Shown here: positions 15,001-21,000 of the stretch, piece by piece
Position numbering within the stretch: position 1 is the stretch's first letter
How the letters are laid out: each line of letters starts with the position of its first letter
Assembly (NCBI GenBank): GCA_039802265.1
Contig: JBDRWI010000017.1
Span: forward strand, 1-37,262
Direction: 5' to 3'
Source of the DNA: a candidate division WOR-3 bacterium
GTDB lineage: Bacteria > Hydrothermota > Tepidihabitantia > SM23-42 > JAOAFX01
DNA: 37,262 bases
Made by a program: the position numbers

Positions 15001-18000
15001 CTTACTGTGGCTGATGCCAAGTCTTTTACGCTGTCCATAGGTATAATAGACAATTCCCCTATGTTCGCCGATTTTTTTCCCCTCTTGGTTCAATATCGGT
15101 CCTTTCTTTTCTGGAATAATATTCTTTAAATAAACAACATAATCGGTGTCCGGCAGAAAACAGACATCCTGACTCTTCTTCCGTTGATGCGTTGGCAAAT
15201 TCATCTTTCGGGCGATGTTTCTTACTTCTTCTTTAGTGAATTCACCAAGTGGCAGCAGGATCTTTGAGAGTTGTTTTTGGTTCAAACGATACAAAAAATA
15301 TGACTGCTCATTCTTGTCCCTTCCCCTTTTTAATAGGTAAACGCCGTCTTTTTCTTCCAGCCGGGCATAGTGTCCGGTGGCAATCTTTTCAAATCCCATT
15401 TCTAATGCCTTATTAAGAAAAAGTCCGAATTTAATAAGTTGGTTACAGCGGACACAGGGATTGGGTGTCCGTCCCGACTGATATTCTTCAAGAAAATTCT
15501 CCACAATCGCTCTTTGATAGGCATCAGCGAAGTCAAAGGTATAATAGGGTATATCCAATATCTCACAAACCCGGCGGGCGTATTCAACATCTTCGTTGGA
15601 TACACCCTTGAAGAATATCGTTGCACCACTTACTGAATGTCCATTTTTTTTCAGAAGGAAGGCGGCGGTTGATGAATCAACACCGCCACTCAAGGCAACG
15701 AGTATTTTCATTTTTGTATAAATCTATTATTTTTTGTTTGAGAGCGGTGATATATCTCTTAGTTCTTTTACCACTCGGGGTAGAATTTCTGATACGTAAT
15801 CAATATCTTCTTCGGTGGTGAGTCTACCCAGCGTCATTCTCAGTGAACCTCGCGCGTCCTCAACGGGGATTCCAATTGCGGTGAGGACATGGGATGGTTC
15901 AAGCGATCCCGAAGAACAGGCAGAACCGGTAGCACATTCAATACCGTATTCATCCAGACGAACAATGAGTGCCTCACCCTCAATATATTTTACTGTTAGA
16001 TGGACATTGTTGGGTAATCTCTTTTGGGGATGTCCATTCAATTTTATGTCTTCAATCTTTTCTAAAAGGGAACAGATGAGCCGGTCCCGTAGTCTTTTTG
16101 AATGTTCCACCCTTTCGGACATTTCTTTTATCGCAATTTCAGCCGCCTTGGCAAGTCCGACAATTCCCGGGACATTATGGGTTGATGCCCGCCTTCCCTT
16201 TTCCTGCGCCCCCCCATGGATGAGCGGTTCAATCCTGGTTCCTTCTCTTATATATAATGCACCGACACCCTTTGGTCCATAGAATTTGTGGGCAGATATT
16301 GATAAAAGGTCTACCTGTAAGTCGTTGACATTGGTATTGATTGCCCCGAATGACTGAACTGCATCGGTATGGATATAGACTTCCCTTTCCCGGCAAATTT
16401 TACCAATCTCTTCTATCGGCTCAATTGTACCGATTTCATTATTGGCATGCATAATTGAAACAAGAACGGTCTTTGAGGTTATTGCCCTTTTTACATCATC
16501 CGGGTCAACCATCCCATATTTATCAACTGATAAGAATGTGACATCAAAACCCTGTTTTTGTAAAAAGTGAAAGGGTTCCAAAACTGCATGGTGTTCAATC
16601 CTGGAAGTAATCAGATGATTTCCCTTTTCCTTCATTGCATAGGCAATTCCCTTGATTGCCATATTATTTGATTCACTCCCTCCGGATGTAAAGACAATCT
16701 CTTCCGGTTTGGCCCCCAGAATATCAGCCACCTTCTTCCTTGAGGCCCTGATTGCCTCCTTTGCCTCAAGACCCATTGAATGGATGCTCGAGGGATTGGC
16801 AAATTTTTCAGTAAAATAAGGCTTCATTGCCTCAAGGACTTCGGGATGGAGCGGTGTTGTGGCTGCATAATCAAGATAGACTCTCTTCATTTCAATCTTT
16901 CACCAATAATATACTCAAAATATGCGGGATGTCAATAGTAATTACCTATCTTTTTAATATTGACATTTGGCAAAATTTTAATAAAATAAACTATATGGAG
17001 TTTAACCTACCGGAGTCAATTATCAACCGGCTCAGGCCCTATCTTGATAGCTATGGGGAGAATTGCCAGAAATTTTTAAATGCGGGTCATCATATCGAAA
17101 GTCGACTCCAGTCAAATTCAGAGATATTAAGTGAAATCCGTCACCAGTTTGATAATCTTTCAGCAACCGTGGAATTAGTATTTGAGGGCATCTCGGTCTT
17201 TGAAAACGAAATAAAGAAGGTAAAGGAATTACTTCAGGGCAGTATAACAGATTTTAATTCATCCCTGTCAATTCTTGCTCGGCTCAGTGACGACTTAAAG
17301 AAAATTACCGAAATATTTGACGAAATCAAGGAGTCGGGTTTGCAGCTTGCTGAGATAATAAAGAATATTAATATTGTTTCGGAGGGTATTGAGGTCGCTT
17401 CCCGCAATGCGGGAATAACCGCCTTTCATGCCGGACGGCAGGGGAGGGGTTTTGAGGTCATTGCCAGGGAGATGGGTCAGCTGGTGCGCATCTCCCGGAT
17501 TCCCACGCAAAAAATTCCCTTGACTTCCTCCGAGATTTTGAGGGGAATTGAAGAGCTTACTGCCGATCTAAAGAAAATTCAAGATATAATTTCAGATTTA
17601 AACGAGATTGCAAAGAGGTTTTCCGAAATTAACGCCGAGTTGCTTACAATTATCCCCTTTGTGGAAACGAGCCTTCAGGATATAGCGGCGAGCATTATCA
17701 CCCAGAAAGATTTACAGAAGGCGCTCATGAAGGAGAACGAGAAGCTACCGCAGTACCTATCTGAAATTTATAATATTACACGGTCATCTGCCGTTACTGA
17801 GATATTTCTGTCCGCCTTCTTTCAGCATATTAACAATATCAAAGATGGCCTCTTTACTGTTAAGGACACCGATTCATTTTATAGTTTACTTAATATTTTT
17901 AAGTCTATTCTTTTCAATATACCTGACTTTGCAGAACAGGTGGAAAGATTTTTAGACCTTTCTAATCTTAAAAAAATGGAAGTCCAGACATCGGACCGGC

Positions 18001-21000
18001 TTATTCTTCAGTTCGTTTCAGAGGCCAATCATCTCAATGAGATTATCTCGGCAATTGCCAACAAGGTTTTGGATTGGCTGAAGGTCTATGAGACGGCTAC
18101 CGGTGTCTTGAAAAGGGCAATGGATTTCTATAAAGTGATACTGGAGATTTTGGGATTATTGCAAAAGAAACTAATCTATCTGAAAGAATCAACCAAAAAG
18201 ATTGAAGAACCACTGCGGGAATTAAAAAGGATTACCGAACGTTCAAAATTGCTCGGACTTTATGCCCGGATTGAGAGCGCGCGCAGCGGTGAGTATGCTA
18301 CCTCATTGGGTGTTGTTACCGGTGAGATCAAAAATCTGTCCGAACGAATAAGAGATTTCGTTGGTAACATTGAATTGATTGAAAAGGAGATTGAACAGAA
18401 TTTTAAGACACTCATATCCTATTTTATATGTAGCACAAGCGATGTGGAGGAAGGTATCGGTGCAATTAAGTCAGCAGTCTCTTCCGTTGATGAGGGTAAT
18501 AATGTTTTAAAAAATCTTGATTCGCTCTCCAAAGAGATGCTTTCTTCAACAAGAAATATGGTGGCGCAATGTCGGACAATTGGCGAAAAGGTCAGAATCT
18601 TTAATGATGACTATCAGAGAATCGGAGAAGATTTTGCTGCCTATCTTGAGGCAGTGAAGTCGGGCAACGAAGATTGCAAAAAAATAACAGGTATAATTAA
18701 GGGATTTGAGAAGGACATCGCCATCGTAGTGAAACAGAAACACAGGACTCTTGTCTTCCGTGATACTACCGAACCCATAATTCTAGATCCAGCAAAAAAG
18801 ACTGACGCCACAAGCCATCAGGTAATAGAACAGATTTTTATTGGACTTCTGAGTTTTGATTCGGCAAATAATCTCATTCCCGGAATTGCCAAGTCTTTTT
18901 CTGTATCCCCTGACGGTCGTTTATGGAGTTTTTCCCTGCGAGAGAATGTTAAATTTCACGATAATTCTAAAGTAACCGCAGCGGCTGTAATAAATTCGTT
19001 CCAGCGGGTAAAGCTCGGTCCGAATGCAAACTTTATTGATTACATTGAAGATATGAAATTGATCAACGAAGGCGATGTTCAGTTTGTTTTGAAGTTTCCT
19101 TATATTCCCTTTCTGGCAAATCTTGCCTGTGGTGTCTGCGATATTGTGCCCCAGGATTTTTCCGAGAGCAATCCAGTTGGCTGTGGGCCTTATCGCTTTG
19201 TCCACTGGGAGAAAGGTCGAGAGATTATCCTTGAGGCCTTTGATGACTTTTTTGATGGGCGACCAGTCATAGACCGCTGTTTAATCAAGGTTATCCCCGA
19301 TGATAAAGAGGCGGTTGAGCGATTTAAAAAAGGTGAGATATCAATTATGAGTCTTTCGGTTGATATGATGGGTGAATTTCCTCCTGATGAGATAATCTCA
19401 GGCCCGGTTCTTTCTACTCAGTATATTTCAATTAATGTTGGACTTGATTCACCCTTTAAGGACCGCCGGGTTCGTCAGGCAATGAATTATGCGATTGACA
19501 AGGAATACTACACCAAGGTTCTTTTAAAAGGACAGGCAATTCCAGCCAAGGGTATTTTTCCCCCCAATCTACCAGCATACAATAAAAATCTTGTCGGTTA
19601 TCCCTACGATTTAAAAAAGGCAAGGGAATTGATGAGGGAGGCTGGTTTTGGCGCGGGCATAAAGGAAAGTTTTATCTTTGATATCCGGGAGGATGCAGAG
19701 GTAATCTACCGTGCCGAGTTTATCAGAGATTCACTGGCAAAGATTGGTATAAACTTAAAATTGAATCCCTTACCCTGGAAGGAATTTTTAGAAAAAACTT
19801 ACAGTGGTAAAAGCATATTGAGCCTGCGCGGATGGATTTCGGACAACGGTGACCCTGATAACTTCCTTTTTCTATTTCATACAAGGAGTTTCGGTTCATC
19901 TGGGAATACCTCTTTTTACTCAAATGCTGAGATTGATCATTTGATTGAGTCAGCCCGCGCCGAGCAGGTTGTAAAAAGGCGGATGGAATTGTATAAAAAG
20001 ATTGAAGAGATGTTGATTTTTGATGCCCCCTGGGTTTTCCTCTCGCACGGGGTTGAAAGTTTTGTGGTTCAAAAGAATATTGGTGGCTTCCGGGTTGATC
20101 CCTTTGGTCTGGTTCGCTTCAGAAATCTTTGGTGTGAATAGATGGAGACTTTGATTGTCTTTAAGATTGCCGAAGAAAAACTTGGACTTGATATTACCAA
20201 GGTTCGTGAGGTGACTGAAATAAAAGACCTGGTTCCGGTCCCCCAGGCACCGAACTTTCTGACCGGTCTGGTAAATGTGCGGGGTGAGATTGTTCCAGTT
20301 CTTTCCCTTAAGAAACGGTTTGGTTTAGAAAAGATTGAAGAGAGTAATGTATTGTTAGTTGTTGAGGACAAAGGGCGGATAGCCGGAATACGGGTTGACT
20401 CTCTTTTGGGAACAAAGAAAATTGATGAAAATAAAATCAACAGAAGTTCTGAGATTATTTCAACGAAAAAAGAAAAGGATTTCTTCCTCGGTGTTCTGGA
20501 GACTGAGGAGAGTCCGATACTCATTTTGGATTTGGCAAAGATTTTGTCAAAAAAGGGGGATTGATGAATTTTTATAAGGAGGATAGATGAGAGTTTTAAT
20601 TGTGGACGACGCAATGTTTATGCGTCGTATGCTCAGTGACATTTTAGAAAAGGGTGGACATACAGTCTGTGGCGAGGCAGCAACTGGAAAAGAGGCAGTA
20701 GAAAAATATAAAGAATTGAAGCCCGATTTGGTCACGATGGATATCATTATGCCGGATATGAGCGGTATTGAGGCAGTAAAGGAGATAAAGAAGTTTGACC
20801 CCAAGGCAAAGATTCTTATGGTTTCAGCAATGGGTCAGCAGGCGCTGGTGCTGGAGGCGGTACAGGCAGGGGCAGTTGACTATGTTGTTAAACCCTTTCA
20901 GCCATCGCGGGTTTTGGAGTCCATTGAGCGGATAACGAAAAAATGAACTTCCGGGGAATTCTGTATAGTCTTTAAATTATGGAAGAATATTTAGAGCTCT

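Follow-up and report, generated by a model that had tools for sequence, protein, structure and literature searches.

The receptor gene and its operon

The window, the whole stretch of 37,262 nucleotides of contig JBDRWI010000017.1 from a candidate division WOR-3 bacterium, contains on its forward strand an open frame (16827/16929-20141) for a soluble chemoreceptor, followed by a set of chemotaxis genes (Table 1). The receptor gene probably starts at ATG 16995 rather than 16929, because 58 of 63 homologues are 1043-1051 aa in length and ATG 16929 is only 38 nt away from the start, at 16890, of a divergent iscS-like gene. The annotated 1070-aa form, which disagrees with the homologue lengths, was therefore rejected. 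All 30 bins are spanned by contigs from four runs of one study, with no indels or joints. Among the recorded holders of the sequence, none is listed as RNA.

Table 1. Positions of the receptor, its parts and the genes downstream of it
Feature	Position	Strand	Remarks
Soluble chemoreceptor, two hairpins and a C-terminal family-5 solute-binding domain (P0002)	16995..20141 (probable start)	+	1048 aa; annotated form 1070 aa from 16929
Hairpin 1 (residues 5-288, tip 148)	17007..17858	+	Proposed trimer-axis ('inner') half, from tip-column comparison
Hinge (residues 289-330)	17859..17984	+	Helix breaks 289-291 and 320-330; indel hotspot at the tips' midpoint
Hairpin 2 (residues 331-581, tip 433)	17985..18737	+	Proposed CheW/CheA-binding ('outer') half, from tip-column comparison
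Complete SBP_bac_5 domain (DppA/GsiB-like), cytoplasmic	18744..20132	+	PF00496 and DppA alignment
cheW	20142..20564	+	140 aa with one domain, unlike the triple CheW of F9 systems
cheY	20587..20946	+	119 aa, Asp52
cheA	20979..22484	+	501 aa; Hpt, dimerisation, ATPase and P5 domains, no P2 match
cheC phosphatase	22481..23089	+	
TPR protein	23095..25479	+	794 aa; downstream in 42/59 loci
TPR and roadblock/LC7 (MglB-like) protein	25495..26397	+	
Small roadblock/LC7 protein	26394..26693	+	

An earlier note had described this protein as two MCP hairpins in tandem followed by a family-5 solute-binding protein (SBP) domain, with no transmembrane segment, and that layout is upheld. PF00015, with a curated cut-off of 34.6 bits, matches at 17301-17705 (41.9 bits, approximately residues 125-259 of the 1070-aa form) and again at 18174-18593 (50.0 bits, approximately residues 416-555 of that form), and PF00496 matches residues 649-984 (E 1e-77). 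T. maritima 2CH7 aligns ungapped with the receptor over 241 columns. All four hairpin arms are about 140-148 residues long, and the C-arms of the two membrane MCPs in this genome have 154 residues, the 44H length. Transmembrane segments are absent from the receptor (highest 19-residue Kyte-Doolittle mean 1.53) and from 64 proteins of its family (at most 1.81), whereas the same measure gives 2.49 and 3.09 for the two membrane MCPs. Within the methylation-helix range, the family conserves E60, E64, Q237 and E514.

The receptor represents a family of more than 150 divergent sequences that is conserved across an uncultured bacterial phylum of WOR-3 genomes. The similar protein on contig C4 (g221), pointed out in the earlier note, is a real paralogue with 33% identity over 669 columns. 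The 5′ end of the open frame of this paralogue overlaps a tRNA-Met gene. In a literature search that lay mostly outside subscription papers, we found no report on the WOR-3 double-hairpin family or on any double-hairpin MCP with SBP_bac_5.

The receptor does head a cheW-cheY-cheA-cheC operon, with successive gaps of 0, 22, 32 and -4 nt. Of 59 loci of the family, 51 have a cheW gene downstream of the receptor, and 47 of the 59 have cheW together with cheY and cheA. The CheA encoded here has the only CheA-type P5 domain found in the genome, and cheR, cheD and cheB are grouped on another contig (C3). The presence of type IV pili (T4P) without flagellar genes was likewise confirmed: seven PilB/PilT-type ATPase matches exceed the cut-off in this genome, and flagellar FliG was found in none of 40 genomes of the order. 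Among 271 genomes of the phylum there are seven strong FliG matches, none of which falls in the 95 genomes with a family match. The operon is thus Dif-like, having an MCP, CheW, CheY, CheA and CheC in a T4P cell without flagella. The Myxococcus Dif system has the same component set (DifA MCP, DifC CheW, DifD CheY, DifE CheA, DifG CheC) in a T4P-bearing, non-flagellated cell with mglBA, although DifA is a membrane homodimer and not a soluble double receptor.

The suggestion that receptors have one hairpin each, and that a protein of this kind is undescribed, was overstated. Receptors of the DosM/F9 type have two signalling domains (PMC9321776, PMC7534058), and McpK of M. xanthus (MXAN_6456), a 44H receptor assigned to the Dif system, combines an MCP domain with a solute-binding-protein domain (PMC3945109). 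The listing for McpK shows three transmembrane segments and a single MCP domain (246-463), whereas the family has two hairpins and no hydrophobic segment; the names of the best 120 of 315 matches do not include McpK. DosM (Vibrio cholerae VC1403, F9-class 44H) resembles the family in being soluble, in its tandem MCP domains and in a spacing near 300. According to PMC9321776, however, 98% of DosM homologues lack a sensor and serve as scaffolds, in contrast to the C-terminal SBP of the family; the 2% that do have sensory domains are itemised in its S6 Table. Moreover, F9 systems have a triple CheW (approximately 520 aa at our F9 control locus) and the order MCP-CheW-CheB...CheR-CheY-CheA, compared to a single 140-aa CheW and the order MCP-W-Y-A-C here. 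Membership of the DosM/F9 group was rejected on CheW type and gene order, and also on the tips, linker and tree described below.

Complementary substitutions in the two tips

Tip columns were computed over 116 sequences (Neff 76) and are given in Tsr numbering. Hairpin 1 retains N381, G393 and G395 (each 100%), F396 (97%) and E402, and carries the substitutions L380R (R380 in 100%), E385T/K, A387F/Y and R388H. Hairpin 2 retains L378, L380 (100%), E385 (100%), A387 and R388 (96%), and carries N381Y (Y381 in 100%) and F396L (L396 in 97%), with G393 and G395 gone. Overlap with the canonical profile on the N-side and the C-side, respectively, is 0.39 and 0.66 in hairpin 1 and 0.53 and 0.36 in hairpin 2. 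Both DosM tips are near-canonical, and the two hairpins of that protein give 0.95/0.95 and 0.75/0.82. By these alignments, the two tips have lost complementary halves of the canonical motif. The second tip is not simply diverged, as had been supposed, since the CheW/CheA-binding residues of the N-helix, lost from the first tip, are retained in it.

The halves of a receptor dimer have inner and outer roles, and an invariant F396 pair is present at the tip (PMC6681711); in the family this pair is replaced by Phe in hairpin 1 and Leu in hairpin 2. CheW contacts I377, L380, N381, V384, R388 and R404 (PMC13098124 Table 1). If the two hairpins pair within one chain, fusion would set which half is inner and which is outer in a trimer of dimers, and each tip could therefore have kept only its own job. 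The N-helix of hairpin 2 (L380, I384, E385, A387, R388) would bind CheW and CheA-P5, the N-helix of hairpin 1 (N381 kept, R380 new) would face the trimer axis, and the C-helix of hairpin 1 would supply F396. The receptor is a candidate for coupling to CheW/CheA, given the usual position of cheW and the retention in hairpin 2 of the CheW-contact residues except N381. Two points weigh against these roles. The E385-R388 pair, present at the Tsr trimer axis, is missing from hairpin 1, and Y381 in hairpin 2 might also impair CheW binding because N381 itself contacts CheW in Tsr.

The tips also bear on whether two chains might pair like with like, giving two linked bundles, one for kinase coupling and one structural, that would amount to two-thirds of a pre-assembled trimer of dimers. 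A homodimer is the MCP default, each hairpin is whole and by itself exceeds the Pfam cut-off, and a flexible hinge would permit the arrangement. However, in a hairpin-2 homodimer the F396 pair would be missing and both faces would bear Y381, R380 would be exposed on the CheW-facing surface of a hairpin-1 homodimer, and in DosM both tips keep F396 and the glycines. We therefore regard like-with-like pairing as very improbable.

Pairing of the hairpins and the hinge between them

Within one chain, a U-turn near residue 290 would bring both hairpins into one four-helix bundle with the tips at one end, and the SBP domain would then lie at the opposite end, the position of the HAMP or ligand domain in ordinary receptors. 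Such a covalent, asymmetric pseudo-dimer, proposed in the earlier note, is still the best reading and in our judgment a fairly probable one, because the tip substitutions are complementary, the midpoint tolerates indels and the family has 1605-aa relatives composed of two hairpin-SBP units. The folded model offered in its favor does not discriminate. AlphaFold gives the receptor a midpoint break and a four-helix bundle (pTM 0.66, Z 20.3), but DosM, run as a control, shows the same break and bundle (pTM 0.64; top VIA match 6z0c, Z 21.1), although secondary papers report DosM to be an extended rod (cryoET, summarised in PMC7534058). Because AlphaFold folds DosM-type proteins back on themselves, such models cannot settle rod versus bundle, and model and fold search were rejected as proof of intramolecular pairing. 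Foldseek matches in the PDB were limited to generic coiled coils and MCP chains. Arm lengths are compatible with both a U-turn and a rod, since those of DosM, like its tip spacing, resemble those of the family. Covariation in register, measured as APC-corrected mutual information over 153 sequences (Neff 94), is weak between hairpins (z 0.9-2.5, against 1.9-2.8 within them), with top pairs mostly reflecting phylogeny, and is stronger in DosM.

Tip spacing takes 13 values in the family, from 264 to 306, and indels occur at 288-297 in 39% and at 318-327 in 60% of weighted sequences. In DosM the linker is ungapped and 114 of 115 sequences have their tips 300 residues apart, although the lower diversity of the DosM set reduces its indel count. 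The non-heptad indels at the midpoint, together with a whole SBP domain inserted there in the 1605-aa relatives, indicate that the linker is not a rigid continuous helix. This observation counts against the alternative of inter-chain pairing, in which hairpin 1 of one chain would join hairpin 2 of a second, either in a lattice or in a dimer that is strand-swapped or antiparallel. In extended form, such a protein would be a DosM-like strut within a two-layer cytoplasmic array, placing one hetero-tip in each baseplate and the SBP domains in the mid-plane. Pairing between chains yields the same contacts between hairpins 1 and 2 and explains the complementary tips equally well, the rod-like DosM has a similar spacing (300 against 282-306), monomer models hide swapping, and swapping has been seen in engineered Tsr~Tsr (PMC4692393). 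Nevertheless, the family has neither the triple CheW nor the F9 gene order, and the DosM duplication is separate in our tree. On balance, we consider inter-chain pairing unlikely, while giving it real weight.

Origin, sensing and implications

The 1605-aa relatives (P0358, P0359 and P0398) are a new observation of this analysis. Their tips are located at 150 and 949 and their SBP domains at approximately 316-788 and 1116-1603, an arrangement in which a hairpin-SBP unit is present twice and the second sensor domain sits whole at the hinge between the hairpins. They share most tip signatures, except that R380 is replaced by Ile. On the hairpin-1 profile, unit 1 reaches 104 bits and unit 2 reaches 28; on the hairpin-2 profile they reach 50 and 75, respectively, and canonical MCPs score similarly on both profiles. 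In a tree from a quick search (151 columns, long branches), unit 1 joins hairpin 1 (SH-aLRT 89), unit 2 joins hairpin 2 (97) and the DosM signalling domains form their own clade (98), which suggests that the hairpin duplication of this family was separate from that of DosM. In an SBP tree, also quick and with long branches, the family SBP clade (95) includes the terminal SBP of the 1605-aa form but not its inner SBP.

These relatives suggest a tandem duplication followed by loss of one sensor, in which an ancestral soluble receptor with one hairpin and one SBP domain would have been duplicated head to tail and the inner SBP later lost. Clusters of 822-827 aa with MCPsignal and SBP_bac_5 (PF00015 and PF00496, as in the family; commonest phylum Bacillota) have the length of one such unit, in a comparison by annotation and length. 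Arguing against this history, the 1605-aa form was seen in two clusters only, lacks R380 and could be a later insertion. The metagenome scan gave ordinary SBP loci only, and none of the 79 that were kept has a fused hairpin. In the 271 genomes of the phylum, for each of which two candidates were scored, no frame longer than 1139 aa appeared among the listed matches.

The SBP domain, an internal domain of a soluble protein with no signal peptide or lipid anchor, differs in these respects and in its fusion to a cytoplasmic receptor from the DppA/GsiB/HbpA family-5 proteins, to which it has a full-length match (E 1.6e-61 to DppA, 1DPP). One column off the carboxylate-binding R355 of DppA lies R898, a position that is Arg in 56%. 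The counterparts of W405 and D408 of DppA are W947 and D950, conserved in 98% and 90% of 123 rows; D408 contacts the N-terminus of the ligand (PMC3295651). Sensing of a cytoplasmic peptide is therefore plausible, although glutathione, nickel chelates, haem and sugars are also among the ligands of family-5 domains. Alternatively, the SBP could be a structural or protein-interaction module, or bind something other than peptide, with the bundle as a scaffold for an array driven by the two membrane MCPs. This would accord with the sensorless scaffolds described for DosM, with the rarity of matches to a methylation-type consensus motif (best site in 34 of 153 sequences versus 103 of 115 in DosM), with an SBP score far below the DppA equivalog cut-off (199.6 versus 1005 bits), as below every other NCBIfam equivalog cut-off, and with the uncertain R355 equivalent. 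Yet the ligand-site Trp and Asp, with the motif around them, show strong conservation throughout the phylum, the hairpins are less conserved than the SBP, and the 1605-aa form has lost the Trp in its inner SBP while keeping it in the terminal one. We hence judge the absence of ligand sensing improbable.

If the single-chain pseudo-dimer does sense, the SBP would close on a ligand in the cytoplasm that carries a free alpha-amino group and is probably a short peptide, and this closure would shift the C2 helix and modulate the single CheA of the genome. As in Myxococcus Dif, CheY-P, removed by CheC, might then act on a non-flagellar output, be it type IV pili, exopolysaccharide or MglAB polarity. 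Taken as a whole, an obligately asymmetric single-chain receptor with roles split between its hairpins and the F396 pair abandoned, reached through steps of approximately 820, 1605 and 1050 aa and feeding a peptide-reading, Dif-like pilus/MglAB pathway across much of the phylum, is a tentative picture that may or may not hold in all its parts.

The roles of trimer-axis and CheW/CheA-face residues have long been unsettled because mutations in a homodimer hit both positions. Engineered Tsr~Tsr single-chain receptors were built to separate trimer-axis from peripheral roles (Mowery et al. 2015), but these swap strands (PMC4692393) and their halves are identical, whereas the halves of this family have diverged naturally and complementarily in a large set of sequences. 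Such a family offers an alternative, since its complementary substitutions (R380/N381/F396 versus L380/Y381/R388/L396) provide a residue-by-residue prediction and a soluble test protein. If the reading is true, the F396 pair would be dispensable, a periplasmic-type binding protein would be able to drive a receptor from inside the cell, and nature would have supplied a test of the role of each chemoreceptor half.

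The receptor gene, its family and its neighbourhood

The earlier note had described a frame with two chemoreceptor (MCP) signalling hairpins in tandem followed by a family-5 solute-binding (SBP_bac_5) domain, and these are present as stated, the two MCPsignal stretches scoring 41.9 and 50.0 bits against a cut-off of 34.6. Translation probably begins at M23 of the annotated 1070-aa form, because a length of 1043-1051 aa is seen in 58 of 63 homologues; residue numbers used here are those of the 1048-aa form, P0002. The reported lack of a membrane segment also holds, with a hydrophobic segment found in 0 of 64 family proteins, and the cheW-cheY-cheA-cheC operon does lie 3′ of the receptor gene. 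Contigs from four runs of one study tile the receptor region without indels, and a single contig among them spans hairpin 2, the SBP domain, cheW, cheY and part of cheA.

Homologue names lead to candidate phylum WOR-3, with some members labelled Edwardsbacteria, Stahlbacteria or TA06. Near relatives of the window derive from metagenomes of hot springs, and the protein may accordingly be thermostable. Matches to a family protein at E 1e-60 or better, which are driven by the SBP domain, occur in 95 of 271 phylum genomes and, at order level, in 34 of 48, most of the 34 carrying two paralogues; full frames among the matches listed in the 271 genomes are about 1030-1140 aa long. Sixty loci were picked among the listed matches of a separate search, and 59 of them have a full-length gene (L088 was left out). 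Within these 59, where certain contigs stop early and certain loci lack che genes, cheW lies downstream of the receptor gene in 51 and is accompanied by cheY and cheA in 47, while cheC is present in 43 and a large TPR gene in 42. No che gene was matched downstream at L033, L042, L043, L046, L047, L077, L079 and L080 (the contig of L043 stops at the gene), and cheW alone follows the family gene at L032, L081 and L082.

Features of the genome (G000) that carries the P0002 gene
Feature	Location	Strand	Content
P0002 gene	window 16995-20141	+	two MCP hairpins, C-terminal SBP_bac_5 domain
genes further 3′	window 28954-36854	+	LysM protein, cNMP-binding protein, two large TPR proteins (1243 and 760 aa)
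sorting-domain protein	window 9-596		Por secretion (T9SS) C-terminal sorting domain
mglB-mglA-like pair	contig C35, 15686-16827		roadblock protein and small GTPase
cheR-cheD-cheB cluster (L091)	locus L091 (contig C3), 4262-11274		MglB-like roadblock, tandem DnaA-like ATPase, DUF4388/MshE-type c-di-GMP-motif TPR protein, cheR, cheD, cheB, TPR protein
paralogue of P0002 (L092)	locus L092 (contig C4), 3589-6885		tips more diverged: F at 381 (hairpin 2), L at 396 (hairpin 1)

In the C4 paralogue the open frame overlaps a tRNA-Met gene at its 5′ end, so the true start lies further down. Relatives of this paralogue form a separate clade.

Hairpin tips, linker and pairing geometry

Tip positions were numbered after E. 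coli Tsr by taking the Asn that is invariant in canonical tips as N381; this anchor fits both the Tsr residues given in PMC13098124 and PMC6681711 and a profile built from 69 single-hairpin MCPs. Column frequencies are weighted (Neff 76). Hairpin 1 has R380, N381, G393 and G395 at 100%, F396 at 97%, H388 at 90% and E402 at 86%, with T or K at 385 and F or Y at 387. The second tip had been called diverged, which is true of L396 (97%), Y381 (100%) and the unconserved G393/G395, but L380 (100%), E385 (100%), A387 (87%) and R388 (96%) are kept, as is L378 (93%), and position 404 is K (77%). With a bulky side chain at 381, receptors fail to form trimers. According to PMC6681711, the inner N-helices of the Tsr trimer meet at the axis, the outer ones are those that bind CheW and CheA-P5, and F396 forms a pair termed invariant; the contacts listed for CheW are I377, L380, N381, V384, R388 and R404 (PMC13098124, Table 1).

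Each hairpin of P0002 thus keeps the half that the other has lost, which suits pairing between the two. We favour, with some reserve, an intramolecular pseudo-dimer with hairpin 2 outer and hairpin 1 inner. Two features speak against such a division of roles: Y381 occupies a position that contacts CheW, and the E385-R388 pair found at the Tsr axis is missing from hairpin 1. Pairing of like hairpins between chains, in which each dimer would hold two identical tips, seems quite improbable.

A pairing of unlike hairpins between chains, including a strut of the kind described for DosM, is an unlikely but serious alternative, and it would leave the same tip complementarity. DosM, the F9-class receptor of Vibrio cholerae, has two tandem signalling domains and a triple CheW beside it, and 98% of its homologues have no sensor (PMC9321776); DosM is described in PMC7534058 as an extended rod linking two baseplates. 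A continuous 300-residue helix would measure ~44 nm, compared with 35 nm reported between the V. cholerae baseplates. As DosM controls we took soluble 631-670-aa proteins with a tip spacing of 300 from a profile search; a relative lies in F9 gene order, its adjoining CheW being ~520 aa. F396 and the glycines are kept in both DosM tips.

The variable linker counts among the evidence that can tell a pseudo-dimer from a rod. Across 116 family sequences there are 13 different tip-to-tip spacings, ranging from 264 to 306, and indels occur in 39% of weighted sequences at 288-297 and in 60% at 318-327, whereas DosM spacing is 300 in 114 of 115 sequences and indels are nearly absent, in what is a less diverse set.

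The AlphaFold model of P0002 (116 sequences; pLDDT 89, pTM 0.66) has helices at 5-145, 147-288, 292-307, 312-319, 331-430 and 432-570. Its best fold match is the single-chain four-helix bundle 6z0c (residues 96-487, Z 20.3, rmsd 2.3, 199/199), which in the model would place both tips at one end. However, the DosM-type control (115 sequences, pTM 0.64) likewise breaks at its midpoint, at 335-337, and matches 6z0c (Z 21.1, rmsd 2.1), so the model cannot separate a back-folded monomer from a rod. The two long helical hairpins claimed earlier are there as predicted, but they give no proof of intramolecular pairing, and covariation between the hairpins of the P0002 family is weak. AlphaFold thus folds the DosM-type proteins (P0164 and 114 aligned proteins) back on themselves into a four-helix bundle, and there are hints from covariation that their domains 1 and 2 are in contact.

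Relatives with two sensors and the origin of the tandem

Two 1605-aa proteins were found among 51 new proteins from the matches listed. Their tips lie at 150 and 949 and their SBP domains span ~316-788 and ~1116-1603, which makes two successive hairpin-SBP units; one of their clusters also holds another full-length member, the third, and a partial sequence labelled Ca. Dependentiae. The unit 1 tip has N381, K385 and F396, yet I380, and that of unit 2 has L380, Y381, E385, R388 and L396. In profile scores and in a quick tree, unit 1 goes with hairpin 1, unit 2 goes with hairpin 2 and DosM stands apart. The terminal SBP falls in the family clade (support 95) with its ligand-site Trp kept; the inner one lies outside that clade and has Phe at this position. 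Since the inner domain has lost the ligand-site Trp, these proteins (P0358, P0359, P0398) may sense two different ligands. The inner SBP begins ~170 residues past tip 1, at the equivalent of residue 318 of P0002, the second indel hotspot. In the Atlas, clusters of 822-827 aa, compared by length and domain content, carry both domains and are as long as one unit.

In the simplest history, a hairpin-SBP receptor would have been duplicated in tandem, its tips would then have specialised, and the inner sensor would have been lost last. Given an SBP tree whose base shows no clear branching order, a later SBP insertion may instead have produced the 1605-aa form.

Other double-hairpin receptors were also seen. 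P0108 and P0200 (763 aa) belong to a separate soluble family with a spacing of 285-292 and near-canonical tips; their C-terminal part has no Pfam match over the cut-off, and the tree gives them a duplication of their own. P0087, P0089, P0093 and about 25 similar proteins (815-905 aa, one named from Ignavibacteriales) have a hydrophobic segment and a tip spacing of 438-450, and apparently represent another independent duplication.

Membership of the P0002 family in DosM was considered and rejected. Myxococcus xanthus McpK, a 1048-aa protein of the 44H class assigned to Dif, is listed with three membrane segments, a single MCP domain and a domain of the solute-binding-protein type (PMC3945109). 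Given DosM and McpK, tandem hairpins are not new alone, nor is a fusion of MCP and SBP; what survives of the novelty claimed is their combination, for which our literature search showed no paper. The family is real, conserved and unstudied, a variant of the MCP or double-signalling-domain kind rather than something categorically new.

Sensor, partner genes and output

The SBP domain of P0002 is complete, with DppA-like structures closest, and scores under every equivalog cut-off. In the alignment, W947 (98%) matches DppA W405 and D950 (90%) matches D408, which binds the dipeptide N-terminus (PMC3295651). The ligand is likely to have a free alpha-amino group and is perhaps, by a modest leaning, a short peptide; many further ligands are catalogued for family-5 domains, and SBPs stimulate receptors as separate extracytosolic proteins (PMC8050422). 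That P0002 is a non-sensing scaffold, which could overlap with any pairing geometry, is improbable.

The genome encodes one CheA-type P5, three CheW and two membrane MCPs whose C-arms of 154 residues have the 44H length. With one CheA and membrane MCPs of this length, P0002 may be part of mixed arrays or, alternatively, of cytoplasmic arrays with two layers (PMC3964821). The C3 cluster with cheR, cheD and cheB is probably the adaptation half of the system, whose component set matches that of the Myxococcus Dif system (PMC4671073). The absence of flagellar genes is borne out by FliG, which gave 7 strong matches across the 271 phylum genomes and none within the 95 with a family match, and the type IV pili by seven PilB/PilT-type ATPases in the genome. 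The output of the P0002 system is not flagellar; judging from context, pili, MglAB polarity or exopolysaccharide would be the candidates.
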